Shown: positions 8,552 through 27,744 of the stretch, piece by piece
How the letters are laid out: each line of letters starts with the position of its first letter
Position numbering within the stretch: position 1 is the stretch's first letter
From: a virus
Length of the DNA stretch: 64,000 nt
Strand: one strand, 5' to 3'
Virus record (IMG/VR): IMGVR_UViG_3300033233_000027
Location: 13,685 to 77,684 of that record
Translations under genes and position numbers: made by a program
The notes under the pieces: model-generated
Told to the model about the DNA's origin: nothing
Databases searched by the model: none
What the model saw: only the letters and a program-made list of their open reading frames with translations

Positions 8552-10654
8552 ATGAGACGGCGAAAGTACGAGCGGTTCTCTGAAGACGACAAGGCAGCGA
8601 TGCTATCGCTGTCGAAAGAAGGTCTGCGGTCAAAGGAGATCCAGACTCATCTTCCACATCTGCCAACCCAGCGAATCAGCGGATTCCTTCGAATGCACAA
8701 GGCCCCAGGAGCGAATCCAAATCCTCGATCGACCGTTCTAGTACGAACGACGGCTGAGGCCGCACCGCAAGTCAGGGCCGCTGCTGCCGCAGCCGCTTCT
8801 GGTAATGTGCAGGCTTCATCCAACCCACTTCCGTTTGCTGCTCAACCTACAACCGCAGCGCACCATCAATCGCAGCCATCTGCGGAATATGACTTCCGGC
8901 CGACGCAGACCCCGATGGTGACGAGCGGAGGAATTCCGGTATCATCTGGTCAGGGTCAGAGACTGGAAGTCGAACGAATCATTCCGCAAGATGGGCTTCT
9001 TGGCGTTCACCCGATGTCGTTCTTGAAAGATGATATCGGTCGTGTTTATGGTTCTGGAACATACAGAATCACGACGCGCTCAAATAGTGGACAAATAATG
9101 ACCGCAGAAGTTCCTATTGCGGCCACCTATGGTCCTCCGCTTTCACCGAAGCGTTATTCTGGGCGAGAAGGACAGCCTGATCGGTCACAACCGAAGCTAT
9201 GGAACGATCCACAAGATCAGCAGTATCGCTTTGAACGCGCAGAGGCGCTTCGCGCTTCTCATAGTCCAGCTGAAGATCTCAAGAACACCGTCCAAGCTAC
9301 GAAGGAACTCATGACGCTTGCGAAGGAAAACGGCCAGGACAGTTCTGGCGGTTACGCTAGAGCCATGGAGACGCTGGCTGCCGCCGCATCGCAGCCGAAG
9401 TCTCAGGAATCTGGGGTGCTTGAGAAATGGTTCATTGCGGACGCAGAACGCCGTTCGATAGAGCGCAAAGAATCTGAGGAACGTCGGGAACGCGAACGTC
9501 GTGAGGACATGGAGCGCCGAGATCGTGATCGGAAGGACGACCAGACGCGTTTCGATCAGATAATGGAACTTGATCGCCAGCGGGCTGTGAGTTCCAACAA
9601 AGAAAAAGATGACGCACACAAGCGAGAAATGGAAAGGCTGAAGGAAGAGAACTCCGCTCGAGTTGCTTGGGAAGCAGAACAGAGAAAAACGCTCCTAGAA
9701 CTCGAGGCGAAGAAGATCGAACTCGTGACCAAGGCGCAAGAGGCTAGGGAGAAGGAACTTGATCGCCGTATTGAAGAAGTAAAAGCTGAGGCAGAGTCTG
9801 GCAGGGATTCGATCCAGGGAGAGCTAGAAAAAGAGCGCGATCACCAGACGGCAATGTTCGATCTTCGGTCAAAGCAACTCGACATACAGGAAAAGTTCCA
9901 GAATGAAAAGCTGGATATGCAGCGCCAGCAGATCACTTCCTCTAGTGCGGATAGCGTCCTCTGGGGGACGGTAAAGGATCTGGTAGACAAGGGCTCTAAG
10001 GCATTTGAGAGATACACGGAGACTGAACAGCTCAAGATGGTTGTCGAAGAGGCTAAAAAGAACGGCGTTAGTCCTGGAACTGTAGCAGACCTCGGGCGGG
10101 CAGCCATGGCTGGGAATATGCAGCCTGAGGCAAAACACACTTCCACGGGCCAAGCCTCCAATACAAACGGAAATGGGAATGGAAAGGGGGCGGAAGTGGG
10201 CCTACTCGACCGATTCTTCAAGGATCCGATCTTTGCTGAAGTCGTGGAGGAGTGGGGCCTTGCGGTCTCTGTCAAGGCAAAGCCGAGTACATTCGCCAAC
10301 ACTTTCCTAGTCTGGATGAACGATCCAGAAAACACGACATACAAGAAGGCGACATCGACCTTTGCTCTGTTCCTTGAGAACAGAGACTGGCCATCGATGT
10401 TTGAAGCCATGCAGAGAAATCTTTCTGCCAAGATCACGGAGCCATTCAAGTCTCCGTATGCGGCTGAATTCTATGAGGCATTCCGCGTCATCGTCGTGGA
10501 GAGTACGCGTTATCTCTACGCGGAGTTCATGCAACAGCGGGCTGACCAAGAGGCTCGTGTTGCGCAAGAAGCGGCAGCGAACAACGGATCTTCTGAACCT
10601 GTAGCGGAAGAGTCGTCTCAGCCCCTGAAGGAAACGGAGCGCATCAGGGCATGA
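8552..10654 (+). CDS. large coiled-coil protein with N-terminal HTH-like segment (possible scaffold/assembly factor)
   Basis: Start set at MRRRKYERFS (GAGAGGG RBS); long E/R/K coiled coil; ATGA-coupled to the transglutaminase-like gene. Confidence 0.7.
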   Translation: MRRRKYERFSEDDKAAMLSLSKEGLRSKEIQTHLPHLPTQRISGFLRMHKAPGANPNPRSTVLVRTTAEAAPQVRAAAAAAASGNVQASSNPLPFAAQPTTAAHHQSQPSAEYDFRPTQTPMVTSGGIPVSSGQGQRLEVERIIPQDGLLGVHPMSFLKDDIGRVYGSGTYRITTRSNSGQIMTAEVPIAATYGPPLSPKRYSGREGQPDRSQPKLWNDPQDQQYRFERAEALRASHSPAEDLKNTVQATKELMTLAKENGQDSSGGYARAMETLAAAASQPKSQESGVLEKWFIADAERRSIERKESEERRERERREDMERRDRDRKDDQTRFDQIMELDRQRAVSSNKEKDDAHKREMERLKEENSARVAWEAEQRKTLLELEAKKIELVTKAQEAREKELDRRIEEVKAEAESGRDSIQGELEKERDHQTAMFDLRSKQLDIQEKFQNEKLDMQRQQITSSSADSVLWGTVKDLVDKGSKAFERYTETEQLKMVVEEAKKNGVSPGTVADLGRAAMAGNMQPEAKHTSTGQASNTNGNGNGKGAEVGLLDRFFKDPIFAEVVEEWGLAVSVKAKPSTFANTFLVWMNDPENTTYKKATSTFALFLENRDWPSMFEAMQRNLSAKITEPFKSPYAAEFYEAFRVIVVESTRYLYAEFMQQRADQEARVAQEAAANNGSSEPVAEESSQPLKETERIRA

Positions 10655-11352
10655 CCGAACACAAAAGGCTGCGGAGGCTTGGCATCGCGATTGATGCCGC
10701 CCCACCAGCCTATGGTGAAGTATTACGGACTCCTCTGGAGGACGACTTCGGGGGCATCCGGTTTGAAGTCGGTCGTGCTGTCCAATACGTAAAGGAAGGT
10801 GGCGCAGATCCGCTTGTGGTTGACACGGCGAGATATTGCGCGATGCTCGCGAGAGATACGGCAGAACAGCTTGGTTTTCCCGTAACTCCTGAGAACGCAA
10901 AGTTGATTGACCTGGAGGGGGTATTCCTTTGGGTCCAGGCCAACTTCGTTTACGTTGATGATCCAACTGGAGTGGAAGTGATGCAGACAGCACCTCGTAT
11001 GCTCCGTCAGAAGATGACGCCGCATGAAGTGCTGGAATGGATGTGGGCTCCGATTCGAGATGGAATGGCTCTTGCCCGCGGTATTGATCCATCGGAATTA
11101 AGCTGTCCTGAAGGAAAAGTGATCGGAGATTGCGAAGAGGCTGCCTGTCTTCTGTTGGCCATGGCTGCCGCTCTTGATATCGGTCCTCTGAAGTTCCGCT
11201 TCGGCGGGAATGATGGCCAACTCCACCATGTTTGGGCTTCTGCTATGGCTGGTGGAGAGTGGCGCGACATGGATGCTACTCAGCGCCAGTTAGGGTTCGA
11301 TCAGTTTCTGCCATTCGACCACTTCGATGAACTGGAGGTCGAACTTCCGTGA
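10651..11352 (+). CDS. transglutaminase-like cysteine protease (Cys-His-Asp triad)
   Basis: GDCEEAACLLLAMAAAL...HHVW...WRDMDAT; upstream YVDDP. Confidence 0.8.
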   Translation: MTEHKRLRRLGIAIDAAPPAYGEVLRTPLEDDFGGIRFEVGRAVQYVKEGGADPLVVDTARYCAMLARDTAEQLGFPVTPENAKLIDLEGVFLWVQANFVYVDDPTGVEVMQTAPRMLRQKMTPHEVLEWMWAPIRDGMALARGIDPSELSCPEGKVIGDCEEAACLLLAMAAALDIGPLKFRFGGNDGQLHHVWASAMAGGEWRDMDATQRQLGFDQFLPFDHFDELEVELP

Positions 11353-11969
11353 TCCTAGGAAAATGGTCTGATGGGCCACGCCTCGGCGCGGTTGAGCTGG
11401 TTGAGCTAGGCTCAATTCGTCGTCACGCCTCCATGGGTGGCTTCCTAGACTTCTTAGGTGGGTTCGCTGGAGAGGTTGCTGGATTCTTCGGGAGTGCTGT
11501 TGGCGCTGGGTTGGGATTCCTTAAGGATGCGCTGAATGTCGGGCTGAAGCCGCTGATGGATGGGGTTGCGTCTGCCTTCACTGGGCTGGCAGATATCCTT
11601 CGGGAGATCCCGCTCATCGGGGAAATCGTTGGTGGCCTCATCCTAGTTATCAACGCGGCCATTCAGACGCTGCTCTCTCTTCCGGGGCTCTTGATTGACG
11701 CGCTTCCGAAGATTCTTAAAGGACTGACCAGTTCGTTCTTTGGGGCGTACGGTAAGGATGAGCAGAGTTCAATCCTAAGCACGGTTCTGCCGAAAGTGGC
11801 CGCCAGAGCTCCAGAGCCGATTCGGAATGTCGTCAAGACCACGCTGGCTGAAACTAGGCCAGCGATTGACGGTTCGGTACAGCCACCCGAATCTGCGGGT
11901 GGAATTGATCCGCTTGTAATCGCCGGGGTCTCTGCCGCGGTTGTTGCCGCAGCTCTGATCGCGGCTTGA
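11349..11969 (+). CDS. putative virion membrane protein
   Basis: RLGAVELVELG leader, Gly-rich amphipathic/hydrophobic helices, C-terminal TM. Confidence 0.65.
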   Translation: MILGKWSDGPRLGAVELVELGSIRRHASMGGFLDFLGGFAGEVAGFFGSAVGAGLGFLKDALNVGLKPLMDGVASAFTGLADILREIPLIGEIVGGLILVINAAIQTLLSLPGLLIDALPKILKGLTSSFFGAYGKDEQSSILSTVLPKVAARAPEPIRNVVKTTLAETRPAIDGSVQPPESAGGIDPLVIAGVSAAVVAAALIAA

Positions 11970-12709: not shown

Positions 12710-12713
12710 TAAA

Positions 12714-12869: not shown

Positions 12870-13628
12870 ATGGGCGAAACGATGCGCGATTACATTCCGC
12901 AACGTCCTCAACGTATCGGCATTTACGACAACAGCACCGGAAAGGTGACTGAGGCCGTCTATTCCGAGTGCGCTGACCAGACGCAGAGTGTTACTATCGC
13001 TTCTGGTACTGGCACGTACGATGTTACTCTCGAATTTCCCCAGACGCAAAACTCGGACTGCGATGCGACTCTTGGTCATGGAGTGGAGATCTCGTATCTC
13101 TCCGGTGGTGGTGCGACCGGCATGACGATTGGAGATCTCGCCAAAGTCCTTACTTCGGGCACGATTGAAATCACTCGTGCTGGCCAGAAGTGCGTCGATC
13201 AGCGCGAGATGGCTCAGGCGAATTTCCTTGTTCAGTTCCAGGCTGAAGCTGCGTTGGCTGCTGGCCGCGTGGCTGCTGGATGGAATAATGAGCAGATTTA
13301 TCGTGCTGGCCAGTGCACGCCTATCATGCTCTATACGAATAGGGATGTGATTCTGGTCAGGCTCCGTGGAGCTCAGCCAGATGAAACCCAGGTTGTTGTC
13401 GTGAAGCTCATCTTTACCCGCTACACGACGCAGCCAACGACTCCTTCCTGCGCACTCCTGCCGCTCGCTATCTTCCAGGGCTCTGCTTTCCCTGTGAAGT
13501 TCTACGAGAGTCTCCCAACCAGGGAAGCGCAGCCTTGGGATGTCGCTGATCTTTCTGGGGCTAACCAGGTGGCTACGCTTACGCATGGGGTTCAGCAGGG
13601 TCTTAGCGCGGAGCGTGGAATCGCGTAA
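12870..13628 (+). CDS. candidate major capsid protein (single jelly-roll-like)
   Basis: Beta-strand-rich, no TM; DLAKVLTSGTIEITRAGQK...PIMLYTNRDVILVRL...VVVKLIF pattern; strong RBS (GAAAGGGAAG); flanked by a structured leader and a terminator. Confidence 0.55.
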   Translation: MGETMRDYIPQRPQRIGIYDNSTGKVTEAVYSECADQTQSVTIASGTGTYDVTLEFPQTQNSDCDATLGHGVEISYLSGGGATGMTIGDLAKVLTSGTIEITRAGQKCVDQREMAQANFLVQFQAEAALAAGRVAAGWNNEQIYRAGQCTPIMLYTNRDVILVRLRGAQPDETQVVVVKLIFTRYTTQPTTPSCALLPLAIFQGSAFPVKFYESLPTREAQPWDVADLSGANQVATLTHGVQQGLSAERGIA

Positions 13629-13660: not shown

Positions 13661-13694
13661 CCGGCGTGCGCCGATTGTCGGCGTACGCCGGTTT
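13661..13694 (+). terminator. intrinsic terminator / stabilising hairpin after the candidate capsid gene
   Basis: CCGGCGTGCGCCGA-TTG-TCGGCGTACGCCGG followed by TTT. Confidence 0.65.
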
Positions 13695-15064: not shown

Positions 15065-15556
15065 ATGAGTAAGAACATTCTCGTGGTTGAAGACGACGCG
15101 AAGCAGGCGCGGGAAATGACTACCCTTCTCAGAAAATGCGGGTACAAGGCTTCCTATGTCTTGTCGTCTGAAGAGGCGATCTGTGTCTGCGGAGCAGAGA
15201 AATTCGACTGCCTCGTAGTGGATTACTGCATGCCGCAGATTGATGGCGTGAAGTTTGTTCGTACCCTACGCCAGTCTGGGGCGCATACTCCAGTAGTCAT
15301 ACTTACAGCCTCAGATAAGGTAAAGGTGGAGGCGGCAGTTGACGACCTTGAGGTGTGGAACGTACTGGAAAAGCCTACGGGCATGAAAGAGCTCGGAGAG
15401 AGCATCGAAGAGGCGTGCGAGTGGTTTGAGATGCCTCCAGAGGTCGTAAACGAGCTTGAGAAGCAACTAGAAGAAGAAACGAAGCACATAGGCGAAATGC
15501 GTCGTGATCTGGACGATGAAACGAAAATCCTTCCTCCTTTTGGGAGAGTTCTATGA
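15065..15556 (+). CDS. response regulator receiver (CheY-like) protein
   Basis: ILVVEDD, phosphoacceptor VVDYCMPQIDG, ILTAS, LEKP. Confidence 0.9.
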   Translation: MSKNILVVEDDAKQAREMTTLLRKCGYKASYVLSSEEAICVCGAEKFDCLVVDYCMPQIDGVKFVRTLRQSGAHTPVVILTASDKVKVEAAVDDLEVWNVLEKPTGMKELGESIEEACEWFEMPPEVVNELEKQLEEETKHIGEMRRDLDDETKILPPFGRVL

Positions 15557-16480: not shown

Positions 16481-17058
16481 TTGGTGGGGGGAAAATGGGA
16501 GTCCTGACTATCGTGGACGGAGAAGGTATCTCGAAGAGGGCTCTCCGGTTCATGATCTCCATGTTCGGTGTCGGGATCATCCTAGGCCTGATTGCCTCCT
16601 TCTGTTATTCGGCCTATCTGATGTCTGTCGGCGGATGGGACAAATCGACGAGCCTATTCCATGCAGTCGTGCTTCTTTTCGGACTAGGCGTGACTGTGCC
16701 GGCGCTTTCCACAAGCCTGCGGATGCTTTATCATGGCCTGGTCCTGAGCGAGAGGGGATTGCAGAACGCTGAGAAGCTGTCGAACGCCGTTGACCGCGCT
16801 GAGGAGAAGGCGGGGCCAATGGTCGACAGGTTCGAGCGGATGGTGGGCAGATTCGAGCGGTTACTGGACATCGCAGAATCTGAACGAGCTAAGGCGATGT
16901 TGGCTAGGGTGGAGAAGGCACTGGAGTCTGGGCTTCTTGAGAATCTGGCTGATGAGTTTGAGCCCCGTGGAACACCTCCATCAATCCGTGCTGCGCTGCC
17001 AACTCTTGTAGCACGCGGGAACGGTGGAGTGAAGAGTCTTCCTCGCAAGGAAGAGTGA
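16477..17058 (+). CDS. membrane protein (2 TM plus coiled coil)
   Basis: Two hydrophobic helices then heptads. Confidence 0.6.
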   Translation: MIGGGKMGVLTIVDGEGISKRALRFMISMFGVGIILGLIASFCYSAYLMSVGGWDKSTSLFHAVVLLFGLGVTVPALSTSLRMLYHGLVLSERGLQNAEKLSNAVDRAEEKAGPMVDRFERMVGRFERLLDIAESERAKAMLARVEKALESGLLENLADEFEPRGTPPSIRAALPTLVARGNGGVKSLPRKEE

Positions 17059-17852
17059 AGATGCAGAAACACAGATTGCTGTTTCCTGCGGGTAGGCTTC
17101 TTGGTCCAATTCCAGTGTCCCGACCACATAGCGTTCTAGTCAAGTATCAGATGGGACAGGTGGATTACGGAGATGAATCTCCACCTCCAGATCAGCCCGC
17201 AGAACCTACTCCACCAGTAGAGACGCCCCCTGACTACAGCTGGGATGTTCCACCTGGCCAAGAGATATCTCCATACTATCCACCAGAAGGGGCACCTCCC
17301 GACTACAGTTGGGATGTTCCACCTGGCCAAGAGGTATCGCCATACTATCCACCAGAAGAGCCCCCTAAAGATTACTGGAGTGATCCATGGGCTGAGGAGC
17401 CGCCTACATCTCCATACGAGCCGATAGGTGTAGAGCCAGTTACAAGCGAACAAAAAAAAGCAGATGAGCAAATAAAAGCTGAGAAGACTACTGGAAAAAA
17501 GACGGCGTTGGTTATCAAGGATCTCCTTGCTGGGGTTCCGGCTGGGTCGTCTGCCTGGGCTTCCTATGCAACCCAGTTAGACAAATGTATGACGATGCTC
17601 AATTCCAGCGATGCCATCAAAGTGATTGGTGGAGGGGCGTGTCTCTACTCGCTCTATCAAAGCGTCCATGACTATGTGAACAAGAGGGATGACGACGAAG
17701 CTGCGGCTAGGAAAGCTAAAGAAGACATTGAACGCGCTGCGGCAGCGGCCAGAGCTGCCGGCAATGCGGCAGCTGATCGGGCGAATCCTAGCGAATGGAT
17801 GTGGATCTTGGCGGGAGGGGCCGTGGCTGCTGCTATAGTGGCCATCGCGTAA
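17055..17852 (+). CDS. tail-anchored putative virion protein, paralogue of 17859..18359
   Basis: Leader ...YQMGQ, Pro-rich repeat, shared QLDxC...GGxCLYSLYQSV domain, C-terminal TM. Confidence 0.7.
   Translation: MKMQKHRLLFPAGRLLGPIPVSRPHSVLVKYQMGQVDYGDESPPPDQPAEPTPPVETPPDYSWDVPPGQEISPYYPPEGAPPDYSWDVPPGQEVSPYYPPEEPPKDYWSDPWAEEPPTSPYEPIGVEPVTSEQKKADEQIKAEKTTGKKTALVIKDLLAGVPAGSSAWASYATQLDKCMTMLNSSDAIKVIGGGACLYSLYQSVHDYVNKRDDDEAAARKAKEDIERAAAAARAAGNAAADRANPSEWMWILAGGAVAAAIVAIA
17226..17363 (+). repeat. 69-bp tandem duplication (PPDYSWDVPPGQExSPYYPPE x2)
   Basis: Near-identical units offset by 69 nt (17229 and 17298). Confidence 0.85.
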
Positions 17853-17858
17853 GGAGGA

Positions 17859-18359
17859 ATGAAGATGCAGAGATCAAGAATGCTGTCTCAAGCGGGTAGG
17901 TTTCTTGGATCCATTCCTATTGCCAGCAAACGCATCCTTCCAATCCACTATCGGCTTGGACAATTGGATTACGGAACGGATGAACAGTCCGCTGGTGCTC
18001 AAACTGCTTCTGCGGTCAGGCAACTCCTCAGTGCGCTACCGCAGGGTTCGGCGGCCTGGATTTCGTATACGAATCAATTAGACAACTGCCTGTCGATGCT
18101 AAACTCAAACACACTGACTGGGGTGGTCGCTGGAGGTACGTGCCTTTACTCGCTATATCAGAGCGTACGTGACTACCTTGACAGGAAGAACGAAGAAGAA
18201 GCTGCCGCACAGAGAGCTAAAGATGCAGAACGTATTGCCGCAGAAGCAAAAGCTAAAGCAGACGCCGCAGCCGCAGCAGCTCGGGCGAGTGCCAGTAGCG
18301 ACTGGCCTTGGATCTTGGCTGGAGGAGCTGTGGTTGCCGCAGTAGTTGCCTTTACGTAA
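17859..18359 (+). CDS. tail-anchored putative virion protein
   Basis: AAGGAGG RBS; leader ...HYRLGQ; C-terminal WPWILAGGAVVAAVVAF. Confidence 0.7.
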   Translation: MKMQRSRMLSQAGRFLGSIPIASKRILPIHYRLGQLDYGTDEQSAGAQTASAVRQLLSALPQGSAAWISYTNQLDNCLSMLNSNTLTGVVAGGTCLYSLYQSVRDYLDRKNEEEAAAQRAKDAERIAAEAKAKADAAAAAARASASSDWPWILAGGAVVAAVVAFT

Positions 18360-18404: not shown

Positions 18405-18545
18405 ATGGCGAAGGTTGTAGCGACTGGTTCGAAGCTGGGGAAGTTTGTCAAGGCTGGTCACAAGTGCGCCAAAGGCTGGAAGAAGAAAGTCGTACGCGTC
18501 AAGGGACATGGCAAGCGTACGATGTGCGTACGCAGGAAGAAGTAG
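18405..18545 (+). CDS. 46-aa very basic protein (not in ORF track)
   Basis: MAKVVATGSKLGKFVKAGHKCAKGWKKKVVRVKGHGKRTMCVRRKK; GGAGG RBS; flanked by hairpins at 18366-18384 and ~18563-18595. Confidence 0.7.
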   Translation: MAKVVATGSKLGKFVKAGHKCAKGWKKKVVRVKGHGKRTMCVRRKK

Positions 18546-18604
18546 AGTAAGGAACAGAGGGGGAACGGGGCGTATCCATGCGCCCCGCCCCGTTCTAATT
18601 TCAT

Positions 18605-20375: not shown

Positions 20376-20933
20376 ATGAAACTCGGGGCTGCGGTCGATC
20401 CATCCTTCATTGCTGGACTGGACGATCTAGCTGACGCCGCTCTCTATGAGGGTGCGCAGGCCTCAATGGTGTACGCAAAGCAAGTGGAGGCTTATCTCTC
20501 CAATCAATCTTCTACGGTAGCTGTCCCAGGAGTAACGCCGCCACTCTATTACCTAGAGGCTCGGCCTCATCTGAACGAAGTTCGGATGATCCTGGTGGAA
20601 TGGATGTCACGTTTAGCGGAAACGGCGAAGTCCTACGGATCGCAACGTCGTGCTTTCGAGGCCATCACCCTGGCTTCGTCGCTACCTAGCATTCCGCAGC
20701 CAAAAGATACCATCGGACAACTAGCGTCCGTCATCACTCCTGAGCATGCGGCGATCAGTGCCCAGTTAGTCGCATCAGAGACAGGGGCGCTCCGTGATGC
20801 GGTGGCGGGGCTTCAGGCGCGACTCGCATCTGCACAAGGAGCTATTGCAGCTCCGATTGAAGAACCGATTAGCACGGCGACAATTGGCCTGGCCGCAGGA
20901 CTTGTCGCCATAGTCCTTTGGGCGATATCATAA
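20376..20933 (+). CDS. tail-anchored putative virion protein
   Basis: Start MKLGAAV; C-terminal TM. Confidence 0.6.
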   Translation: MKLGAAVDPSFIAGLDDLADAALYEGAQASMVYAKQVEAYLSNQSSTVAVPGVTPPLYYLEARPHLNEVRMILVEWMSRLAETAKSYGSQRRAFEAITLASSLPSIPQPKDTIGQLASVITPEHAAISAQLVASETGALRDAVAGLQARLASAQGAIAAPIEEPISTATIGLAAGLVAIVLWAIS

Positions 20934-20947: not shown

Positions 20948-21319
20948 ATGGCAGCAGGAGCCAGTTCGATTTCATGGGGAAAGAAGATACCACTTGGGGC
21001 GGCAAACCAGAAGAAGGCTGGAGAGCCTTTACGGGTCGTCCCGCCCGCGCCTAGTGTTGCACTGATCCCTATGGTTTCACTTGGAACAACAACGCATCCG
21101 CTGACTCTTGGCAAAGCGGAGACTCCGATTCAGGCAGCGCAGATATCGGCTCCTCCCGTTGAGATGGGGGCGGCTCACGGGGAAGCTGTTGTCCTAGAAT
21201 CTGTCTGGACTGTGTCCATCGTTGCTGTTGATCCAAGCGGCAAAAAGTACGTTGCTGAATTCGATGCAGTCTTTCCAGAGGGCTCCTGCTTGACTGCATT
21301 GACTACCAAGAAACAGTAG
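20948..21319 (+). CDS. putative virion protein with repeated LG/MG motifs
   Basis: GAGGAGG RBS; IPLGA, SLGT, TLGK, EMGA. Confidence 0.6.
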   Translation: MAAGASSISWGKKIPLGAANQKKAGEPLRVVPPAPSVALIPMVSLGTTTHPLTLGKAETPIQAAQISAPPVEMGAAHGEAVVLESVWTVSIVAVDPSGKKYVAEFDAVFPEGSCLTALTTKKQ

Positions 21320-21330: not shown

Positions 21331-21633
21331 GTGAATGCGATACTTGGAGCTGATGCCGTGATAGGATTCGCCCAATCCTGGCCTGGATGGGCTGAAAAGG
21401 CCGGCATCTACTCCTTGGCGCATGAGTTGCAATCGGAAATCGATAGGGGCGCGTGGGGGAGGGATGGAGAAAGATCGGCGCGGATAGGGAGGATCCTCGG
21501 GCTCGCAGAAGCGAGGCTTGAGGCGGCAGTTGCGAAAGAAAGTTCGGCTGGTACAGAGCCCTCAATGGAGGGCATGGCAACCATGATGTCAATGCTCAGC
21601 AGCGCAGTCTGGATCTGCGTTCTCGTGCTCTGA
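21331..21633 (+). CDS. tail-anchored protein
   Basis: MNAILGA...; C-terminal hydrophobic helix. Confidence 0.55.
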   Translation: MNAILGADAVIGFAQSWPGWAEKAGIYSLAHELQSEIDRGAWGRDGERSARIGRILGLAEARLEAAVAKESSAGTEPSMEGMATMMSMLSSAVWICVLVL

Positions 21634-21761: not shown

Positions 21762-22475
21762 ATGGCTATGGCAAGTATCCCCTCCGGTGGAGGTGGACTA
21801 AGGCTTGAGTCGTATGCGGCTCCAAAACAGAGCGTCCAGATTCAGCAGAGGTCGATGGCTAAAAACTCTTCTGAGGACTCGTGCCCAGAATGCGGAATCG
21901 GTAATGGTTGCGGGTGCTTGGCCAAGGTAACTATGGGCAAGGCGAAGTGTGACGGAAAATGGGGGGAGGGCGGGGCAGTACCGGAGATCAGTAGAAAAGT
22001 GCCGATTATAGTTCGAGCCAAGCCGATGCCTGGAACCGAACGGAGCGGAATCAACTACCCTCCGATGGGTCAGCCATCGAAGAAAGGTATCGCGCTAGGA
22101 CAGAATGCTTACGGCTTCAGTCATGCGGCCACAACGGAAGAAGTTACATCGCTCCTGCGGTCCCTAGAAAAGGCACTCGCAGATGTGGCCGCTGCGGCTG
22201 ACGGACAGAACGCCCCAGCTTGTGTCCGCGACATCATGGCGGGATCGTATCTGCTGGCTAAGAAGACCGCAGAAAAGATGCGCAACTTCATCATGGCAAA
22301 TGTGCCAAAAGTAGAGTGGCTATTGACTGATGGTGAGGCGGCAGTTGCTGGTGAAGTCCTGAAATGTGCAGCAACCTTGCAGTCATCCAGCACTAAGATG
22401 GAATCGGATGACACTGGGATGGCTGCTGCCATCGCTCTTGGGCTTGGGGCCCTCGTTCTTTTCTTCGTCGTGTGA
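21762..22475 (+). CDS. tail-anchored putative virion protein
   Basis: TMGK, PMGQ, ALGQ motifs; C-terminal TM. Confidence 0.65.
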   Translation: MAMASIPSGGGGLRLESYAAPKQSVQIQQRSMAKNSSEDSCPECGIGNGCGCLAKVTMGKAKCDGKWGEGGAVPEISRKVPIIVRAKPMPGTERSGINYPPMGQPSKKGIALGQNAYGFSHAATTEEVTSLLRSLEKALADVAAAADGQNAPACVRDIMAGSYLLAKKTAEKMRNFIMANVPKVEWLLTDGEAAVAGEVLKCAATLQSSSTKMESDDTGMAAAIALGLGALVLFFVV

Positions 22476-22789
22476 TGGGAGAAAGTTCCATGGGTCAACA
22501 ACTGCGTCTCATGAATAATAGGATACTTGGACAGGAAGCCCTACGGATCGGTCCTATTCAGATCAAGACGCCAAGCCCAGCCATCTCCGAACTTCAGAAA
22601 GCAGCTGTTCAGGAGTCTACGGACAAAGTAGAGATGGTGACTAGGGTAACATCAGCATTGACGAACCATTTTGAGGAATTGTCTGCGTTCTTGCTCGGAA
22701 CGGACACGACCGCTGAGGTGGTGAAACAGGCGACTCAGAGCCTGACCTCTGCCGTTGACAAGAGAGACGCTGTGATCGGATCTGTCTGA
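22472..22789 (+). CDS. hypothetical protein
   Basis: SMGQ...RILGQ leader; coupled to the previous gene. Confidence 0.55.
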   Translation: MMGESSMGQQLRLMNNRILGQEALRIGPIQIKTPSPAISELQKAAVQESTDKVEMVTRVTSALTNHFEELSAFLLGTDTTAEVVKQATQSLTSAVDKRDAVIGSV

Positions 22790-22824: not shown

Positions 22825-23091
22825 ATGAAACGTCCAACGGGTTCCGTTGGAGTATCCAAGACTTTCAAGGTGTCCAAGAAGATCAGAGGAGCAGAGGTGT
22901 CCGCTCCTGGCTTGGGAAGGGCCCTAGTTGCGGTAGTGAAGGTATCGAAATATAGATATGTGGTGGCGGCTCCGAAGGAGCTCGGAGGAGCGAAGTCCGT
23001 TCCTGCTGACTCTTTCACGGATGCGCTGCACTGGACCGTGTCGCAAATGAACACAAAGGCGAAGAGAGAGGCGAAGGGGAAAAAACGATGA
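22825..23091 (+). CDS. small basic protein
   Basis: K/R-rich, 88 aa. Confidence 0.55.
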   Translation: MKRPTGSVGVSKTFKVSKKIRGAEVSAPGLGRALVAVVKVSKYRYVVAAPKELGGAKSVPADSFTDALHWTVSQMNTKAKREAKGKKR

Positions 23092-23561
23092 ATCAACCAA
23101 TGCCAATCATGCTCCGTCCGTCCGGTATACGACTTCCAGTCATGCTTCCATCTACGGTAAGGTCCTCAGCTAACCCGATTATCAGGTCCGCAGCGCGGCC
23201 ACCAGCTCTGGCTGGTGTCAAGCTCGGACAGGCATGGAAAGAAGCAGGCCTCCTTGACTTTCCTATATTTGCCATTGCCCGAGATGGCGGTGCCACCATG
23301 TTGGGTCTCTTGGTGGCCATGCAGCATCGGGGTATCAATACAGTCATGGGCGTAATCGGCCTTGTGACTGGAGCTCTCGGTGGGATTGGATTGGCGAATG
23401 ACTTGTGGAAAGTAGCATTTGATAAGCCGCTCATCGGAATGGAATCAAAAGATTTTGGAGCCCTCTTCATCACCGCGGGCGTTGTAGGAGCCCTCGGCTA
23501 TCTCATGTTCGGAAACCCAGGATCGACAGCCTCAAGGGCCCTCAAGAAGGTGACTGCGTGA
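23088..23561 (+). CDS. multi-TM putative virion membrane protein
   Basis: Pro/Arg leader ending VKLGQ, three hydrophobic helices. Confidence 0.65.
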   Translation: MNQPMPIMLRPSGIRLPVMLPSTVRSSANPIIRSAARPPALAGVKLGQAWKEAGLLDFPIFAIARDGGATMLGLLVAMQHRGINTVMGVIGLVTGALGGIGLANDLWKVAFDKPLIGMESKDFGALFITAGVVGALGYLMFGNPGSTASRALKKVTA

Positions 23562-24310
23562 TCCAAAGAACCACCCTGCCGATCCGTCTGGCCAGACCGA
23601 AGATGGCGATGCCGGCTTTGCTTGGGTTCGTTCCCCCGAAATCACATCCACAGTTAGGTGCCGGACTCATCTCTGACCTACTTGGGGTGGATGTCCCAAA
23701 AATAGGAGTAGCGGCGATCTTGGCTGCTGGAGGCGTAGGAGCCTTGTTCGCTACTAAGATACTTCCTGAACCATTCAATACAGTAGCCGCTATCGGTGGC
23801 GTTGGCTTACTGGGTATTTCAATATACGAGTTGATCGATTCCTTTGGTGGTCCATCGGAAGCATCAAAAATACAAAGCGGTGAGACCGTGGATCTCACCA
23901 CGCATCCGAGGGTAACTCCGCAGGAGGTTCAGGATAAAAAGGTAGACGCTCGCTTCATTGAGCCACTTGAGAATGCGAATGTCTTGAAAAATCCGTTCAG
24001 ATCTGGCGCATACGTACCAACGAAGCTGATCGTAACAAATGATACAGGCAGATTGGTCACGGTTCGCCTTCTGTTCCAGGTAGTTGAGGGTGATGGATCT
24101 GTAAACTCCTATCACGAAGACAGGATGGCCGATCAAGGAACAAACACAAGAACATTTGATGCCCCGATAACTTCATACAGTGCTTTCTCGTGGCCACCCT
24201 GGCAACCAACAAGTGCGTGTGTCCAGGTTCGTGCAACGACGATAGAAAATGGGGTGGAGATTAAATATCCAGGTGGATGGGACGATCAGCGGTGCTTCAA
24301 TGTCATATAG
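23558..24310 (+). CDS. membrane protein with C-terminal beta-sandwich
   Basis: PIRLARP...PQLGA leader, two TM helices, Ig-like C-terminus. Confidence 0.65.
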   Translation: MIQRTTLPIRLARPKMAMPALLGFVPPKSHPQLGAGLISDLLGVDVPKIGVAAILAAGGVGALFATKILPEPFNTVAAIGGVGLLGISIYELIDSFGGPSEASKIQSGETVDLTTHPRVTPQEVQDKKVDARFIEPLENANVLKNPFRSGAYVPTKLIVTNDTGRLVTVRLLFQVVEGDGSVNSYHEDRMADQGTNTRTFDAPITSYSAFSWPPWQPTSACVQVRATTIENGVEIKYPGGWDDQRCFNVI

Positions 24311-24343
24311 ACCTAGAGCAGAGCCAATGTTTAGGGTAAACAG

Positions 24344-24616
24344 GTGAAGTTGAAGTTCGTGGATGTCCCTGAAGGCGGCTGCTTCGCATCAGGCAGCGGA
24401 CGGCCATCAAAGAAGTTGGTCGACGGTCGCTGTGCCTCCATCACCAAGAAGGGGAAGCAGCGCATCGTGCGATGCCCGAAGCAGGAGAGGGACGTGCAGA
24501 CAACGACGTGCCCGCTCTCTCTCCTTGGGGCTGGCCTGTCTGGTCCAAAGCGCGGCCTCGTGGAAATCGGACGCGCATTGCCGCATGAGCCTGAAAAGCG
24601 AAAAGGACGGCGATGA
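24344..24616 (+). CDS. small basic Cys-rich protein
   Basis: 90 aa, four Cys, K/R-rich. Confidence 0.55.
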   Translation: MKLKFVDVPEGGCFASGSGRPSKKLVDGRCASITKKGKQRIVRCPKQERDVQTTTCPLSLLGAGLSGPKRGLVEIGRALPHEPEKRKGRR

Positions 24617-25536
24617 GCGATTTCCTGAGAGATCCAGAAGGCCTGATCGATGCCTTGCGGGACTACTCGCCAGATGGCGTTCATGTCCTATCCCCGCTAG
24701 GTGGAGGAACGATCCGCCATCAGATCTATGGTAGGGAATTGGATATCAGCAAAACGCTTCCTGTCGCTTCGTTCCGAGTGGATCTGGACGATCCAATTCC
24801 GTTTGAAGAACACGCCGCAAAACTGAGGCTCTCTCCAGAAAAGATGACCGAGAAAGAACTACGAAAACTCTGGCGGGGCCATGAGCCTCCATTTCCAAGC
24901 GAAGTTCTGGAGCGCGGACTGAGCATGATGGACATCGAAGAGATGTCTTTCAGGAACATGGAATGTCTGGATGACGAAAGACGGATCGTCTGCTATGTCT
25001 TCGGCTGGAGAGACCTTGTCGTGGATCCTCTATTCCCTGGGGCCATGGTGGAATACGAAGAGGGCCGCAGTGGTGTTGCCTCCAAAGGAATATTGCCTGG
25101 AAGAGTCGCTGGAGGTGACAAGTCAATCGTCTTCCTGGAACTGTTCGAGCCGATGACTGCATCGGAAGCTAACCAACTCAATACCGCGCCATCAGCTATT
25201 CAATCTGGATTCTACAGTAAAAAAACTGTAGCGATCGGCGGAAATACATGGGATGCATGGACGGTTTCAGATCCAGATTCCCTCCCAAAGGGAGATAGAG
25301 TTGAGATCGGTGGAGGAGAATACGAGGTCAGGCTGGACGAGCCTCTTGATCTATCCAAGATTGCTGAATTCTGCTCCAAGCACTACCCAGATGAGCCTGC
25401 CTGTGTCTGGCAGTCGCTCCTCTTCTTCGTACTTCCGCTCAACGCCAACAAAGGGGGAAGATTCCATCCGCTTCGTGCTGGTCAGGAAGGTACGTACATG
25501 GATGCGCTGGAATGGGAGATCGGGCACGGATTATGA
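24613..25536 (+). CDS. hypothetical acidic protein
   Basis: 307-aa ORF, ATGA-coupled. Confidence 0.65.
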   Translation: MSDFLRDPEGLIDALRDYSPDGVHVLSPLGGGTIRHQIYGRELDISKTLPVASFRVDLDDPIPFEEHAAKLRLSPEKMTEKELRKLWRGHEPPFPSEVLERGLSMMDIEEMSFRNMECLDDERRIVCYVFGWRDLVVDPLFPGAMVEYEEGRSGVASKGILPGRVAGGDKSIVFLELFEPMTASEANQLNTAPSAIQSGFYSKKTVAIGGNTWDAWTVSDPDSLPKGDRVEIGGGEYEVRLDEPLDLSKIAEFCSKHYPDEPACVWQSLLFFVLPLNANKGGRFHPLRAGQEGTYMDALEWEIGHGL

Positions 25537-25594
25537 GAGAGGAATTCTTTGAGCGAGCGGGGGTGCGTGGTATCATCCCCGCTGGGAGAGACGC

Positions 25595-25966
25595 ATGAAG
25601 GTATCGGCTAGGCTTGGCACAGGTGGATGCCCCTCTGGGAAGATTCGCAGGAAGGCCTACACGACGCGTAAGGGCGTTCATGTCAAGTCATCATGCGTTC
25701 CTGACAAGGGAACGAAAGGAAAGGGTCCAAAAACTCTTCCAACACCGAGGCCTGGCTCGCTCGAGGGCTGGAAGAAGGATCTCCCATCAACGGAGCGCCA
25801 CGCCATCCTGCACGATATCACCAAGCGCGAAGGGTGCGGCGTAGCCATAAAAAAGCTGACGCTTCTCCAGAACATCACGGCTGATGCGGCAACGAAGCGC
25901 ACAGCCAAGACAGACAAGAAGTGGCTGAGAGGCCAGGGATTCTGCGAGCTTGCGAGGGGAAAATGA
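25595..25966 (+). CDS. small basic protein (possible nucleoid/core protein)
   Basis: ARLGT then CPSGKIRRKAYTTRKG...SCVPDKG...RHAIL...KKL...DKKWLR. Confidence 0.6.
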   Translation: MKVSARLGTGGCPSGKIRRKAYTTRKGVHVKSSCVPDKGTKGKGPKTLPTPRPGSLEGWKKDLPSTERHAILHDITKREGCGVAIKKLTLLQNITADAATKRTAKTDKKWLRGQGFCELARGK

Positions 25967-26220
25967 AAACGAAGCTCGGGGCCATAGAACTGGTGGAACT
26001 CGGTCGCGCCTCAAAGCGCGTCTGCGCTAGGGCAGTCAAGAGCGGTAAGCGGTGGGTCGTGCGCACCTCAGATGCGGGTTCCGGTGCCGGCAGGAACTGG
26101 ATTGAGGCTCCGTGCCTTCGCAGCAAGAAGAAGTCGAAGGCGCGTACGTTCCTGACTCGCTCCATCGCAGAAGCCCATGCGCGAAAGTGCGGAATCATGC
26201 TGTGCCGAAAAGGAAAATGA
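25963..26220 (+). CDS. small basic protein
   Basis: MKTKLGAIELVELGR; ATGA-coupled. Confidence 0.6.
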   Translation: MKTKLGAIELVELGRASKRVCARAVKSGKRWVVRTSDAGSGAGRNWIEAPCLRSKKKSKARTFLTRSIAEAHARKCGIMLCRKGK

Positions 26221-26262
26221 GTCGGTAATATACTTTTGACTAGGACGAAAGGGGGGATAGGA

Positions 26263-27042
26263 ATGCAAGCGAGACCACTGGGGTATTATGGGCGTATCAA
26301 GCCTTCACCAATCAGGATCCCGCAAGGTGCCCGCTCAGCGGCACTTGGAGCTGCGATCATTCTGGATCAGCAACTTGCCGCAAGCGTAATCCAGCGATGG
26401 AATGGGGCGAATCAGGGAAAGAACGAAGCCCTAGCTGTACTCACTAACTTCCCGTACGATACAGCTCCAGTAGGTTCATATTCGCAACTGGATGGGGCCG
26501 TTACCAACTTTGAGACGCTCAACGGATCGGCTGGAATCGTAAGCCTTGTAGGAAAAGCTACCCTAGTTCTTCAAAACAACGCACCCTCCTTCACGTCACA
26601 GGAAGAACTACAGGCTCTTAATGCGCTGGAGAACATGGGGCATCTGCTACAGAAAGCAGCTCAGGCGCTGATGAGTATTCCTCCTCCGACCCCAGCCCAA
26701 CCGCCACAAGGCATTCTCCTGTCGGCCGCAGAGGCTAATGGATACAACGCTGCCGTGCAGTCGCTTCTCGAGGCTATCGGACTGCTTGGAACCCCAGCCA
26801 TCTTGGTGCCGCATAAGGCTGCATTGCAGGCGCTTTCTGGCAACTTGCAGACATCCCCAGTCTATGTGCCACCCAACTTTGCCTCCACAATCCAGGCGGC
26901 TTCTGATGCGGTTACGACTGAGAGGAATAGACAGGCTGCGTTGGCCCAAACAGGACAGACTCCAGTTGCTGGAGATCAGACCGCGCTCTACGTTGGCGGT
27001 GGCGTTGCGCTTACTGCCTTGCTCCTTATTGCGTTTGCCTAA
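26263..27042 (+). CDS. tail-anchored putative virion protein
   Basis: PIRIP...AALGA leader; domain shared with 27070; C-terminal TM. Confidence 0.7.
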   Translation: MQARPLGYYGRIKPSPIRIPQGARSAALGAAIILDQQLAASVIQRWNGANQGKNEALAVLTNFPYDTAPVGSYSQLDGAVTNFETLNGSAGIVSLVGKATLVLQNNAPSFTSQEELQALNALENMGHLLQKAAQALMSIPPPTPAQPPQGILLSAAEANGYNAAVQSLLEAIGLLGTPAILVPHKAALQALSGNLQTSPVYVPPNFASTIQAASDAVTTERNRQAALAQTGQTPVAGDQTALYVGGGVALTALLLIAFA

Positions 27043-27069
27043 ACCTATGATGCGGGCTATGCCCGCAAT

Positions 27070-27744
27070 ATGAATTGGAGAATAGCGATGAATCAGCCGA
27101 TCAGACTCGCACGACAATTTTCTCCCATCGGAAAGTCGATCCGCCTTGCTGGTGCCCGTCTTGGGAATCCAGATACATTCCTGTCGGATTCTCAGGCATC
27201 TGCGGTCAGGCAGGGCGCACAGACGCTTCTGCAAGCGATCGGGGCGTTGGGAAATCCAGCTAGTCTTTCTTCCTGGAAAAACTGGCTTGAGACCTTCTCG
27301 TACAGGCTTCAGCAGCCACCAGTTTATGTGGCAGATGACTACACCTCCACTCTCCAGGGGGCGTCCGATGCAATTGCGGCAGAGAACGCTAAGCAGGGTG
27401 GCCAGGTCCCGACGATGTTCCTCTACGCCGAAGAGGCGGCTCCATGGTCTGAGGCAGCTAAAGCGATTCTAGCTGAGATGGGAAATATCGGTAATCCAGC
27501 ATCCTTGGCCCAGCATAGGAGTAATCTGGAATCCCTAGTCTCGCAGTTCTCAGATGTCAAGCAGGATACCACGGGTCGAAATTATGTCGTGGTTCGATCT
27601 GATTATGGCCAGAGGATTGAAAACGCCAGAGCTGCTACGCAGCAGGCAAAGGCTTCTCCAACCGCCTCAACTGGTCCATCTACGGTCGAAGTGGCTGGTG
27701 TAATTGGAGTGATCGGCCTCGGCCTCTGGCTCGCGTTGGGTTAA
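27070..27744 (+). CDS. tail-anchored putative virion protein with internal duplication
   Basis: PIRLARQ...ARLGN leader; two GNPASL repeats; C-terminal TM. Confidence 0.7.
   Translation: MNWRIAMNQPIRLARQFSPIGKSIRLAGARLGNPDTFLSDSQASAVRQGAQTLLQAIGALGNPASLSSWKNWLETFSYRLQQPPVYVADDYTSTLQGASDAIAAENAKQGGQVPTMFLYAEEAAPWSEAAKAILAEMGNIGNPASLAQHRSNLESLVSQFSDVKQDTTGRNYVVVRSDYGQRIENARAATQQAKASPTASTGPSTVEVAGVIGVIGLGLWLALG

Follow-up and report, generated by a model that had tools for sequence, protein, structure and literature searches.

Leu/Met-Gly leaders on late proteins of an uncultured bacterial virus and a transglutaminase-fold enzyme that may trim them

Why do otherwise unrelated late proteins of one virus begin with a basic leader closed by Leu-Gly or Met-Gly, and does the transglutaminase-fold enzyme encoded beside them act on it? 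An initial annotation raised the question for a stretch of 64,000 nucleotides (the window; positions 13,685 to 77,684 of IMG/VR record IMGVR_UViG_3300033233_000027). The record is circular, 77.7 kb long, and comes from an uncultured bacterial virus that is apparently tailless. Its late operon covers 20 kb of the plus strand (8552-28702), and the gene order is kept in 25 relatives from soil and peat metagenomes. [quoted passage not shown]

The enzyme and its neighbours

The genes around the enzyme are as follows.

8552-10654, plus strand: first operon gene, 700 aa, start chosen by its Shine-Dalgarno (SD) sequence
10651-11352, plus strand: second operon gene, 233 aa; transglutaminase-fold cysteine enzyme, candidate leader peptidase
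11131-11133, 11227-11229 and 11272-11274, plus strand: codons of the catalytic Cys161, His193 and Asp208
11349-11969, plus strand: gene after the enzyme, 206 aa; short leader, tag, Gly-rich hydrophobic body and C-terminal hydrophobic segment
11382-11411, plus strand: tag LGAVELVELG in the 11349 gene
31015-31746, minus strand: 37%-identical paralogue of the enzyme, inactive: Ser replaces Cys161 and Tyr replaces His193

The second gene had been described as transglutaminase-like with an intact Cys-His-Asp triad, and both fold and triad are confirmed. Its AF2 model (pLDDT 94) matched transglutaminase-fold proteases in Foldseek and VIA; the VIA matches (Z 9-11) are to the putative proteases 3kd4 and 3isr and to LapG, PNGase, TG2/3 and PeiP/PeiW. 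PF01841 is matched by 15 of 32 family members, while the window enzyme itself stays under the Pfam cut-off of 23 bits (E 0.019, 15.7 bits). The enzyme has 87 representative homologues, and the pattern GDC[DE]E..HHVW..D.D, triad columns included, is conserved in its family. Inteins typically occupy essential active-site motifs, and in six homologues they lie at or beside the catalytic Cys. No signal peptide was found in the window enzyme. Enzymes with this fold may also be amidases, cross-linkers or isopeptidases (PeiW/PeiP of archaeal viruses), which the fold by itself does not distinguish.

The enzyme also bears the motif on its own N-terminus, MTEHKRLRRLG/IAID (10651-10683; here and below the slash follows the motif Gly), and [LM]G lies within the N-terminal extension of 19 of 31 homologues (5.4 expected), mostly followed by Arg. 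In relatives, a similar dead paralogue with the same [LM]G start is placed directly 3' of the active gene. The 8552 protein, which matched nothing in Pfam or PHROG, consists of a helix-turn-helix-like N-terminal segment, a Pro-rich linker and a long Glu/Arg coiled coil. It has one homologue (P0002, 47% identical) and tblastn matches in 21 related loci, and its homologue stands immediately 5' of the enzyme in relatives wherever the locus includes the upstream gene.

Leaders and the [LM]G boundary

The sites in the other genes are listed below.

17061-17852, plus strand: 32-aa leader (17061-17156) ending KYQMG/QVDY; paralogue of 17865
17865-18359, plus strand: 32-aa leader (17865-17960) ending HYRLG/QLDY; AGGAGG SD 7 nt upstream
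20376-20933, plus strand: 4-aa leader (20376-20387), MKLG/AAVD
20948-21319, plus strand: 17-aa leader (20948-20998) ending KIPLG/AANQ; AGGAGG SD; more LG sites at residues 45 and 73
21331-21633, plus strand: 6-aa leader (21331-21348), (V)NAILG/ADAV; weak example
21768-22475, plus strand: internal sites PPMG/QPSKKGIALG/QN (22065-22100)
22490-22789, plus strand: 14-aa leader (22490-22531) ending NRILG/QEAL
23088-23561, plus strand: 47-aa Arg/Pro-rich leader without Asp or Glu (23088-23228) ending GVKLG/QAWK
23558-24310, plus strand: membrane protein; 34-aa leader (23558-23659) with PIRLARP, ending HPQLG/AGLI
25595-25966, plus strand: basic protein; 8-aa leader (25595-25618), MKVSARLG/TGGC
25963-26220, plus strand: very basic protein, 85 aa, beginning MKTKLG/AIELVELG; second tag copy at 25975-26004
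26263-27042, plus strand: 29-aa leader (26263-26349) with PIRIP, ending SAALG/AAII; strong SD AAAGGAGG upstream
27088-27744, plus strand: 26-aa leader (27088-27165), MNQPIRLAR to GARLG/NPDT; the database gene call (P0090) begins at the identical Met

All peptides quoted in the initial annotation are in the sequence, at or beside the positions it gave. Several gene starts were reassigned from SD support: those at 20376, 20948 and 25963 stand, whereas 17055, 17859 and 27070 give way to 17061, 17865 and 27088, and SD sequences further support 21768 and 22490 (formerly 21762 and 22472) and 26263 (as before). Some examples lose force. The supposed leader of 21768, PMGQ/ALGQ, lies about 100 residues in, past a Cys-rich segment; a relative (G001) has a Cys-rich leader with an SLLG/Q end. 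SKLGK (18405) is present in a very basic ORF of only 47 aa and is weak, as is the 21331 leader, because its LGA codons double as GGAG ahead of an alternative GTG start at 21358.

The claimed enrichment of the motif over background is borne out. When the first 50 residues of the 32 operon proteins were scanned without bias, LG was the top of all 400 dipeptides (31 observed vs 13.1 in shuffles, z 5.7), at 2.4 times its rate in the remainder of these proteins (p 3e-4). Moreover, of the 25 operon proteins called automatically, 9 have [LM]G[AQNT] in their N-terminal 50 residues, vs 6 of 103 elsewhere in the genome, and outside the operon LG is not enriched. In total, x-[LM]-G closes the leader on 14 proteins of about 12 families. 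The description of these proteins as otherwise unrelated holds generally, with two paralogue pairs (17061/17865 and 26263/27088) as the exceptions. The leaders (279 residues) contain 47 Lys/Arg (17%) and just two Asp/Glu (0.7%), and Asp/Glu rises to 10.5% downstream of the site (p 1.5e-10). PIR[LI] occurs in the leaders of 23558, 26263 and 27088 and PIPV in that of 17061; a six-frame scan found no further PIR[LI] at gene starts. The codons of the motif vary for Leu/Met (CTT, CTC, CTA, TTA, ATG) and also for Gly (GGA, GGC, GGG, GGT), which places the motif at the protein level and not at the DNA level.

The leader is also a real feature of distant relatives, where [LM]G is conserved at the leader/body boundary in at least three protein families. 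Their operon proteins contain [LM]G 31 times in the N-terminal 50 residues vs 16.4 expected (p 5e-4), and further late proteins carry Arg/Pro-rich [LM]G leaders. The G-Q boundary is invariant across the 17061 family; in the 17865 family the leader sequence drifts and the boundary stays, as YRLG/Q in P0094 and MG/Q in the L011 homologue. An upstream protein of the L011 type is looser, with LG, IG and LK at the site across three loci.

The tag LGAxELxExG was found in 19 of 24 related metagenome loci, always directly 3' of the enzyme gene(s). In 18 sequences with an overall identity of just 21-39%, its residues L12, G13, A14, E16, L17, E19 and G21 never vary. The tblastn alignments of the 11349 homologues start exactly at the RLG site, and the preceding residues vary, being 3 to 17 long; at the second site, two loci have LSG or LAG instead of LG. 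The 25963 protein shares the tag despite a body unrelated to that of 11349. LGAxELxELG, flanked by two [LM]G sites, may be either a prime substrate of the enzyme or a docking or regulatory peptide.

What the enzyme may do

We tentatively favor, with a little under even confidence, the explanation that the enzyme trims the [LM]G leaders in particle assembly; we found no report of such trimming for tailless bacterial viruses of this kind in the literature. We infer peptidase activity, cutting at the motif and a role for the leader. The late proteins concerned, about a dozen and mutually unrelated, would be made, like the enzyme, with a basic, Arg/Pro-rich N-terminal extension nearly free of Asp and Glu. 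The Cys161-His193-Asp208 enzyme, most likely a peptidase, would accept Leu/Met in the S2 pocket, with Gly occupying S1, and the cut would fall after Gly, which would free the leader and expose Ala, Gln, Asn or Thr as the new N-terminus. The basic leaders probably keep precursors on the acidic viral membrane or DNA until assembly. Several leaders of only 4-8 residues are hard to reconcile with targeting, and those of 4-6 residues (MKLG, MKTKLG) are too short to be targeting signals alone. The selectivity of papain-like enzymes comes mainly from a hydrophobic P2, and ATG4 and UfSP cut after hydrophobic-Gly; the hydrophobic P2 and small P1 at [LM]G fit papain-like proteases. Other peptidase families were not found in the genome.

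The enzyme family probably travels in virions, since gp34 of SSIP-1 carries the annotation "structural protein". Its role there may differ from leader cutting, because N-terminal [LM]G is not enriched in SSIP-1 late proteins (12 vs 11.1 expected). This suggests another possibility, which we consider unlikely but worth real attention: the leaders are assembly, membrane- or DNA-binding modules, and the enzyme is a virion-borne entry or lysis hydrolase, for example a peptidoglycan endopeptidase/isopeptidase like PeiW/PeiP. [LM]G would then be a hinge, stay uncut, or be the site of another protease, either from the host or viral and unrecognised. The gp34 protein has the same catalytic core yet serves a virus whose late proteins lack the enrichment, and the enzyme's fold recurs in PeiP and PeiW (Z 9.5), viral isopeptidases that act on cell walls. 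Membrane phages often carry virion-associated wall hydrolases (PRD1 P7, phi6 P5), and neither an endolysin nor an entry hydrolase could be recognised in any part of the 77.7-kb genome. However, such a hydrolase leaves unexplained the same [LM]G start on the enzyme and its dead paralogues, the LGAxELxELG gene 3' of the enzyme gene(s) in every tag-bearing locus, and the match of the motif to papain-like P2/P1 preferences.

The residue after the motif bears on whether the enzyme is instead a true transglutaminase/acyl-transferase, which would cross-link the late proteins mutually, to lysines or to amine lipids and harden the particle, reacting through Gln after Leu/Met-Gly or through an acyl-enzyme formed at Gly. 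The fold is common to TG2, TG3 and factor XIII (Z 9-10), and [LM]G-Q is present in 17061, 17865, 22490, 23088, 21768 and several relatives. However, Gln follows Gly in only 4 of 14 window sites, which weakens this alternative, and Ala in seven; the invariant tag has Ala rather than Gln, and Arg prevails in the enzyme homologues. Moreover, bacterial and viral superfamily members of known activity are mostly hydrolases, and we regard cross-linking as quite improbable.

Of similarly low probability is non-covalent docking, in which the leaders, above all LGAxELxELG, would not be cut and the enzyme or its dead paralogue would be an adaptor or chaperone that loads the particle. The gene after the enzyme may then be the split-off membrane-anchoring half of a gp34-like protein: the C-terminal extension of gp34 has a hydrophobic anchor missing from the window enzyme, and the next window gene encodes both a Gly-rich body and a hydrophobic segment at the C-terminus. 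The conservation of the tag far beyond the needs of a cleavage site and the retention of catalytically dead paralogues are also in its favor. On the other hand, the main copy retains the triad, which inteins target, and leaders that drift while only their x-[LM]-G end is kept show the pattern of a processing site.

Finally, that chance, paralogy and composition produced the pattern, LG being a common dipeptide and the examples picked post hoc, is very unlikely and already largely refuted: [LM]G[AQNT] as first noticed is only 3-fold enriched (p 0.002, post hoc) and 18405, 21331 and 21768 are weak or internal, but LG ranked first without bias, just two paralogue pairs are involved, the charge switch is sharp, and the motif recurs in independent loci, without any variation in one family.

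Comparison with known systems

Adenain, the adenovirus protease (MEROPS C5), cuts (M/I/L)XGG/X and (M/I/L)XGX/G sites in pIIIa, pVI, pVII, pVIII, pre-mu and pTP. Both systems have a virus-encoded cysteine enzyme with particle-borne homologues and a short motif of hydrophobic residue and Gly on numerous unrelated particle proteins, including several basic ones, and the small peptide encoded by the window enzyme's neighbour could be a cofactor like pVIc. However, adenain belongs to clan CE, a fold unrelated to the transglutaminase-like Cys-His-Asp order of the window enzyme; the window virus has a bacterial host, its hydrophobic residue would be P2 rather than P4, and its cutting is putative. 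Vaccinia I7L (Ala-Gly/Xaa) and ASFV pS273R (Gly-Gly/Xaa) process core proteins and likewise cut several structural precursors after Gly at a two-residue core motif, but they are clan CE enzymes of eukaryotic viruses with other motif residues.

Among phages, T4 prohead protease gp21 removes the capsid targeting sequence of internal proteins and phiKZ gp175 removes propeptides. There too, unrelated cargo proteins share a short N-terminal leader that a phage-encoded protease removes at a simple motif, but these are serine proteases of the herpesvirus-assemblin type from tailed phages, with motifs ending in Glu. C39 papain-like peptidase domains cut bacteriocin double-glycine leaders, and Prp cuts the N-terminal extension of ribosomal protein L27 and the capsid and scaffold proteins of phage 80-alpha. 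These cysteine peptidases also take off short N-terminal leaders with a small terminal residue, and the double-glycine core ELxxIxGG loosely resembles ELIELG, but they are of other families with other cellular roles; C39 and Prp domains are absent from the genome. LapG-type bacterial transglutaminase-like cysteine proteinases (BTLCPs) have the fold of the window enzyme (Z 9.3-10), and LapG recognises a short motif of small residues at which it takes an N-terminal module off its substrate. It works in the periplasm, depends on calcium and cuts at a di-alanine site in an adhesin, unlike the window enzyme with its candidate [LM]G site and no signal peptide.

SSIP-1 is a tailless, membrane-containing phage and the only cultured virus with a homologous enzyme. 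The best viral predicted-structure match, I1ZBG7 (304 aa, E 1.2e-7), is probably gp34, judging from the matching length. SSIP-1 differs in the C-terminal membrane anchor of gp34, in the absence of the window enzyme's helical insert and in having a Walker-A ATPase, gp40; the only such protein in the window genome is DnaB. On the other hand, gp34 (JN880423, 21296-22210) is a true homologue by the family profile (E 2.3e-16, 50.5 bits), with Cys, His and Asp motifs kept; its neighbours in a late module on the plus strand include small membrane proteins, a lipoprotein and a 47-aa basic ORF. We propose that the window operon is the late, particle-building module of a tailless virus distantly related to SSIP-1.

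Genome and late operon

The source virus is represented by a single record of 77,684 bp, of which the window covers bases 13685-77684. This record is probably a complete circle, because its termini overlap by 120 bp. About 32 plus-strand genes lie head to tail at 8552-28702, and their starts were set by Shine-Dalgarno (SD) spacing. The proteins of this late operon gave nearly no matches to Pfam and PHROGs, the exceptions being a stand-alone receiver domain and weak sub-threshold matches. Genes outside the operon include those for DnaB, a tyrosine integrase, a C5 methylase, glycosyltransferases, collagen-like proteins, a YukD-like ubiquitin fold and homing endonucleases. No terminase, portal, tail protein or lysin was recognised in the genome, and no Walker-A/P-loop ATPase, including the FtsK-type packaging ATPase, was found besides DnaB in the 77.7 kb (window 1-64000 plus L001, the other part of the record).

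Recognisable genes of the record (window coordinates unless L001 is named)
2851-4173, DnaB, the sole Walker A carrier
15065-15556 (+), stand-alone response-regulator receiver domain in the middle of the late operon (PF00072, E 1e-21)
28750-29049 (-), YukD-type ubiquitin-fold protein ending ...FPEIVAGVVI, just beyond the operon (PF08817, E 1.4e-13)
36075-36614 and probably 42922-43386, HNH-type homing endonuclease genes of the early region
40172-40531 and 39877-40158 (-), DUF4160/DUF2442 gene pair (E 2e-21 and 7e-13), located by their ORF sequences rather than by the Pfam table
48621-49493, 49598-50458 and 63096-63998 (-), and L001 1516-2565 (-), collagen-repeat proteins

No E1/E2-like genes were seen beside the YukD-type gene. 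The collagen-repeat proteins 48621 and 49598 have a common N-terminal start, beginning M(G/R), and long collagen-like arrays also occur in the related loci L020 and L016.

Leu-Gly leaders and the conserved tag

All the [LM]G peptides quoted in the initial annotation were found in the sequence, and after start correction a candidate N-terminal x-[LM]-G site was present on 14 proteins. For gene 21768, PMGQ and ALGQ do exist as two sites, but they lie about 100 residues inside the protein and are not N-terminal. The supposed enrichment was borne out by a pattern-independent test, in which LG ranked top of the 400 dipeptides within the first 50 residues of 32 operon proteins (31 occurrences vs 13.1 in shuffles, z 5.7), at 2.4 times its rate in the remainder of the same proteins. 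The next-ranked dipeptides were IR, RL, LR and PI, which fits a PIR[LI] element. The expected difference between operon and non-operon proteins was also seen: [LM]G[AQNT] occurs in 9 of 25 operon proteins versus 6 of 103 outside, where the N-termini show no LG excess.

The segments preceding the sites contain 47 Lys/Arg and only 2 Asp/Glu in 279 residues in total, whereas the parts following them contain 10.5% Asp/Glu (p 1.5e-10 vs leaders); operon proteins without a site have ordinary N-termini with 9.8% Asp/Glu. Because the Asp/Glu content switches at the site, the change from a basic, acid-free leader to the protein body occurs abruptly at [LM]G. Different codons are used for Leu and for Gly, which places the signal at the protein level. 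The idea that LGA is a mere translation of GGAG in a ribosome-binding site was rejected, since the codons vary, the upstream starts have SDs of their own and the leaders of paralogues differ at the protein level; only for gene 21331, unlike the other genes, is this reading ambiguous. The carriers had been called otherwise unrelated. This holds for about 12 bodies, because only two paralogue pairs (17061/17865 and 26263/27088) remain when leaders are removed before comparison, but not for those pairs. Homologues of 17865 keep the border while the leader drifts: it is Y-R-L-G↓Q (arrow, candidate cut) in one with 47% identity and M-G↓Q in one with 28% identity. No homologue of 27088 is on record.

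A metagenome scan yielded 24 related loci from soil, rhizosphere and peat, and an IMG/VR scan with a DNA pattern for the tag LGAxELxExG, carried by 11349 (the gene after the enzyme), yielded one true relative among 11 matches, on a 236-kb contig. Protein-pattern scans of viral contigs (752-aa, 585-aa and enzyme queries) and a scan of genome contigs found no relative. Contigs of the relatives reach 156 kb (L011), 236 kb (L033/G001; G001 about 90% complete by CheckV) and 242 kb (L020). These three, which share the late module, are 2-3 times the size of the window's genome, and such sizes would be very large for tailless bacterial viruses.

The relatives repeat the gene order of the window, which begins with a helix-turn-helix/coiled-coil protein and continues with the enzyme (in many cases with a dead paralogue behind it), the counterparts of 11349 and 12005, a predicted all-beta 240-aa protein and further genes. 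Homologues of 11349 open with 3-17 variable residues, after which comes [YFVH]-[RQS]-L-G-A-x-E-L-x-E-[LM]-G, and this tag-bearing gene follows the enzyme gene(s) in every locus that includes it (19 of the 24 metagenome loci and the IMG/VR relative). All 18 sequences compared share the tag residues L, G, A, E, L, E and G without exception, at 21-39% identity elsewhere. The window has a second copy at the start of 25963, a basic protein of 85 aa with an unrelated body. In two loci LGAEELIEMG occurs twice in one protein, with a basic RxPFLxxR stretch between the copies:

L014 11286-11948, protein with double LGAEELIEMG
L018 2784-3047, protein with double LGAEELIEMG

Behind the tag, most relatives have a basic Arg/Pro-rich segment and then a second site (..TLG↓QLDF..), for which two loci have LSG or LAG. 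Arg/Pro-rich leaders with an [LM]G end also occur on further late proteins of the relatives, such as GPALG↓QPSNEYE, VRVVMG↓QQPF, GPFMG↓LSLE, NRSLG↓QLPG and SWRPLALG↓ALQ. The first 50 residues in four representative loci contain 31 [LM]G, where 16.4 would be expected (p 5e-4).

Several unrelated small proteins outside the operon share another N-terminal tag, MA(G/R)E(M/L)xW:

L001 3640-4194, 5876-6109 and 11827-12327 (-), and window 54582-55061 (-) with neighbours, MA(G/R)E(M/L)xW-tagged proteins

The transglutaminase-fold enzyme and the link to SSIP-1

The second operon gene (10651-11352, +) had been credited with an intact Cys-His-Asp triad, and we located it at C161 (GDCEE), H193 (HHVW) and D208 (DMD). 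The columns GDC[DE]E, HHVW and D.D are conserved in an alignment of 32 homologues, among 87 representative homologues in public metagenomes. The order Cys..His..Asp, with Cys at a helix start and His and Asp on beta-strands, is that of the transglutaminase-like superfamily. The AF2 model (pLDDT 94) was aligned by VIA with Z 9-11 over 120-168 residues to 3kd4 and 3isr (putative cysteine proteases), PNGase, LapG, TG2/3, FXIII, PeiP/PeiW (pseudomurein isopeptidases) and CPR-C4; every clear structural match has the transglutaminase fold, and Foldseek gave the same set as its best matches. PF01841 scored 15.7 bits (E 0.019; gathering cut-off 23 bits) against the window enzyme and matched 15 of 32 family members (E up to 1), with a best E of 3.1e-8. 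From the predicted structure, a transglutaminase-fold core can be regarded as settled, for the fold only; its chemistry could be that of a peptidase, isopeptidase, amidase or cross-linker.

The genome also encodes an inactive relative of the enzyme, and a similar dead paralogue directly follows the active gene in relatives:

31015-31746 (-), enzyme paralogue with both Cys and His lost

Six enzyme homologues (P0015, P0018, P0019, P0027, P0031 and P0047) carry inteins (Intein_splicing plus LAGLIDADG), inserted at the catalytic Cys (GD/C...HN/CEE) or, in P0047, four residues past it. Inteins usually occupy indispensable active-site motifs, and their placement argues that the Cys is functionally essential. 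An intein in such a viral gene seems unusual in itself. The N-terminal extensions of the homologues are basic, with LG as their top dipeptide and [LM]G in 19 of 31 alignable sequences against 5.4 in shuffles. A complex prediction that paired the enzyme with 11349 residues 1-40, each given as an alignment, made no call for or against binding (score 0.05).

[quoted passage not shown] The profile of the enzyme family matched SSIP-1 gp34 by hmmsearch (E 2.3e-16, 50.5 bits) in two stretches spanning the DPxGxE and Cys..His..Asp regions, with the Cys, His and Asp motifs kept. The best viral match among predicted structures is a 304-aa protein equal in length to gp34. The virion placement of gp34 is that of its GenBank note, 'structural protein'. 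It has a C-terminal membrane anchor (...LLLGGGILLGGGYLIAQ), whereas the window enzyme ends at residue 233 without a hydrophobic tail; a C-terminal hydrophobic segment is present on the next gene, 11349. SSIP-1 also has a Walker-A ATPase (gp40), unlike the window genome, which has no such packaging ATPase. Its late proteins show no N-terminal [LM]G excess. A likeness between the leaders of SSIP-1 gp37 and 23558 was not significant in shuffles and was discarded. The homology to gp34 is the best evidence that the operon may build a particle of the general SSIP-1 kind, which agrees with the abundance of small membrane proteins and with the presence of a lipoprotein (15904) and a 47-aa basic ORF (18405).

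The last of these is comparable to the 47-aa basic ORF51 of SSIP-1, and its product is a candidate DNA-condensing protein. A GC-rich hairpin lies 3' of it at about 18551-18596, and L011 has a 43-aa basic ORF in the same place (17032-17163). No late protein is better conserved across the group than one of about 240 aa (MFRPPEYAALINPIACNAFAMRCEGR...), which is predicted to be all-beta and whose gene has a GC3 of 0.92-0.97 in the relatives. This is likely a major capsid protein. The AF2 model of the window copy is of low confidence (pLDDT 45.7, all-beta), sequence searches of PDB and Pfam gave no match, and an Atlas language-model lead to the PM2 P2 capsid domains is weak (score only 0.77).

12870-13628 (+) in the window, 6197-6913 in L016, 13044-13760 in L020, and others, conserved all-beta protein
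18405-18548 (+), 47-aa extremely basic ORF (MAKVVATGSKLGKFVK...RRKK) with a GGAGG SD

Proposed leader removal, its alternatives and known systems

The most likely reading, at a little under an even chance, is that the enzyme removes the leaders. It would be a papain-like peptidase that takes Leu/Met in S2 and Gly in S1 and cuts after Gly, and the basic leaders might, speculatively, park precursors on membrane or DNA. This proposed cleavage is favoured because the enzyme and the invariant tag are tightly linked as genes, because the site sits on the enzyme itself and its paralogues, because only the last two leader residues are conserved, at a compositional border, and because the motif matches the established papain-like specificity. 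The main rival, in which the enzyme would be a wall hydrolase carried in the virion, or would do some other job, and something else would deal with the leaders, is rather unlikely, though the lack of an [LM]G excess in SSIP-1 and of a recognised lysin in the genome speaks for it. Cross-linking by the enzyme, a chemistry that the fold would allow, is improbable, because Gln follows Gly in only 4 of the 14 window sites. We give equally little credit to the tag as a pure docking peptide, and chance is largely excluded.

Leader removal may be part of a wider reading, which we hold tentatively, as possible and somewhat doubtful: that a lineage of large tailless bacterial viruses, distantly related to SSIP-1 and known from 78-kb records and from relatives whose contigs reach 242 kb, arrived independently at an adenovirus-like ripening step with an unrelated enzyme, including the release of a peptide. 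Acid-free basic leaders would be cut off a dozen unrelated membrane and core proteins and the enzyme itself, and the invariant acidic octapeptide AxELxELG, which has such a site on either side in the gene next to the enzyme's, would be released as a cofactor or regulator like pVIc, the cofactor peptide of the adenovirus protease.

Serine maturation proteases of the assemblin type typify tailed phages and herpesviruses, and cysteine ones of clan CE typify the jelly-roll viruses of eukaryotes. The protease of the jelly-roll viruses was, by the standard evolutionary scenario, acquired in eukaryotes (PMC6260650). We found no report of a maturation protease in bacterial tailless membrane-containing viruses in the literature, and no paper tying SSIP-1-like viruses or transglutaminase-like enzymes to capsid maturation. 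If cutting takes place as proposed, virion ripening would have a third protease fold, recruited independently of the other two. Its simple, predictable site would allow mature N-termini and cargo sets to be predicted and would ease the interpretation of dark proteomes in a soil virus group that is widespread, and a compact Leu-Gly-specific peptidase might be obtained.

Several known systems differ from that of the window. Adenain and other clan CE enzymes have the order His..Asp/Glu..Cys, whereas that of the window enzyme is Cys..His..Asp, and no match to Peptidase_C5 or C57 was found in Pfam. LapG/BTLCP enzymes are periplasmic and have a signal peptide, which the N-terminus of the window enzyme, MTEHKRLRRLGIAID, lacks; LapG cuts a di-alanine TAAG-type site, not [LM]G, in a LapA-like adhesin, no such adhesin is present in the window virus, and the structural likeness is at the fold level only. 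No assemblin-like serine prohead protease family (S77/S78/S80, U9/U35) was found by Pfam or PHROG in the operon or elsewhere in the genome. Double-glycine leaders have the form LSxxELxxIxGG, whereas the window sites end in [LM]G, not GG, and no C39 domain or ABC transporter is present in the genome. Leader-tagged cargo is known from phage T4, and Gly-directed cysteine proteases ripen the virions of adenoviruses, poxviruses and ASFV. From the ripening of these eukaryotic viruses, the window system differs in enzyme fold, in motif (hydrophobic at P2) and in host domain.
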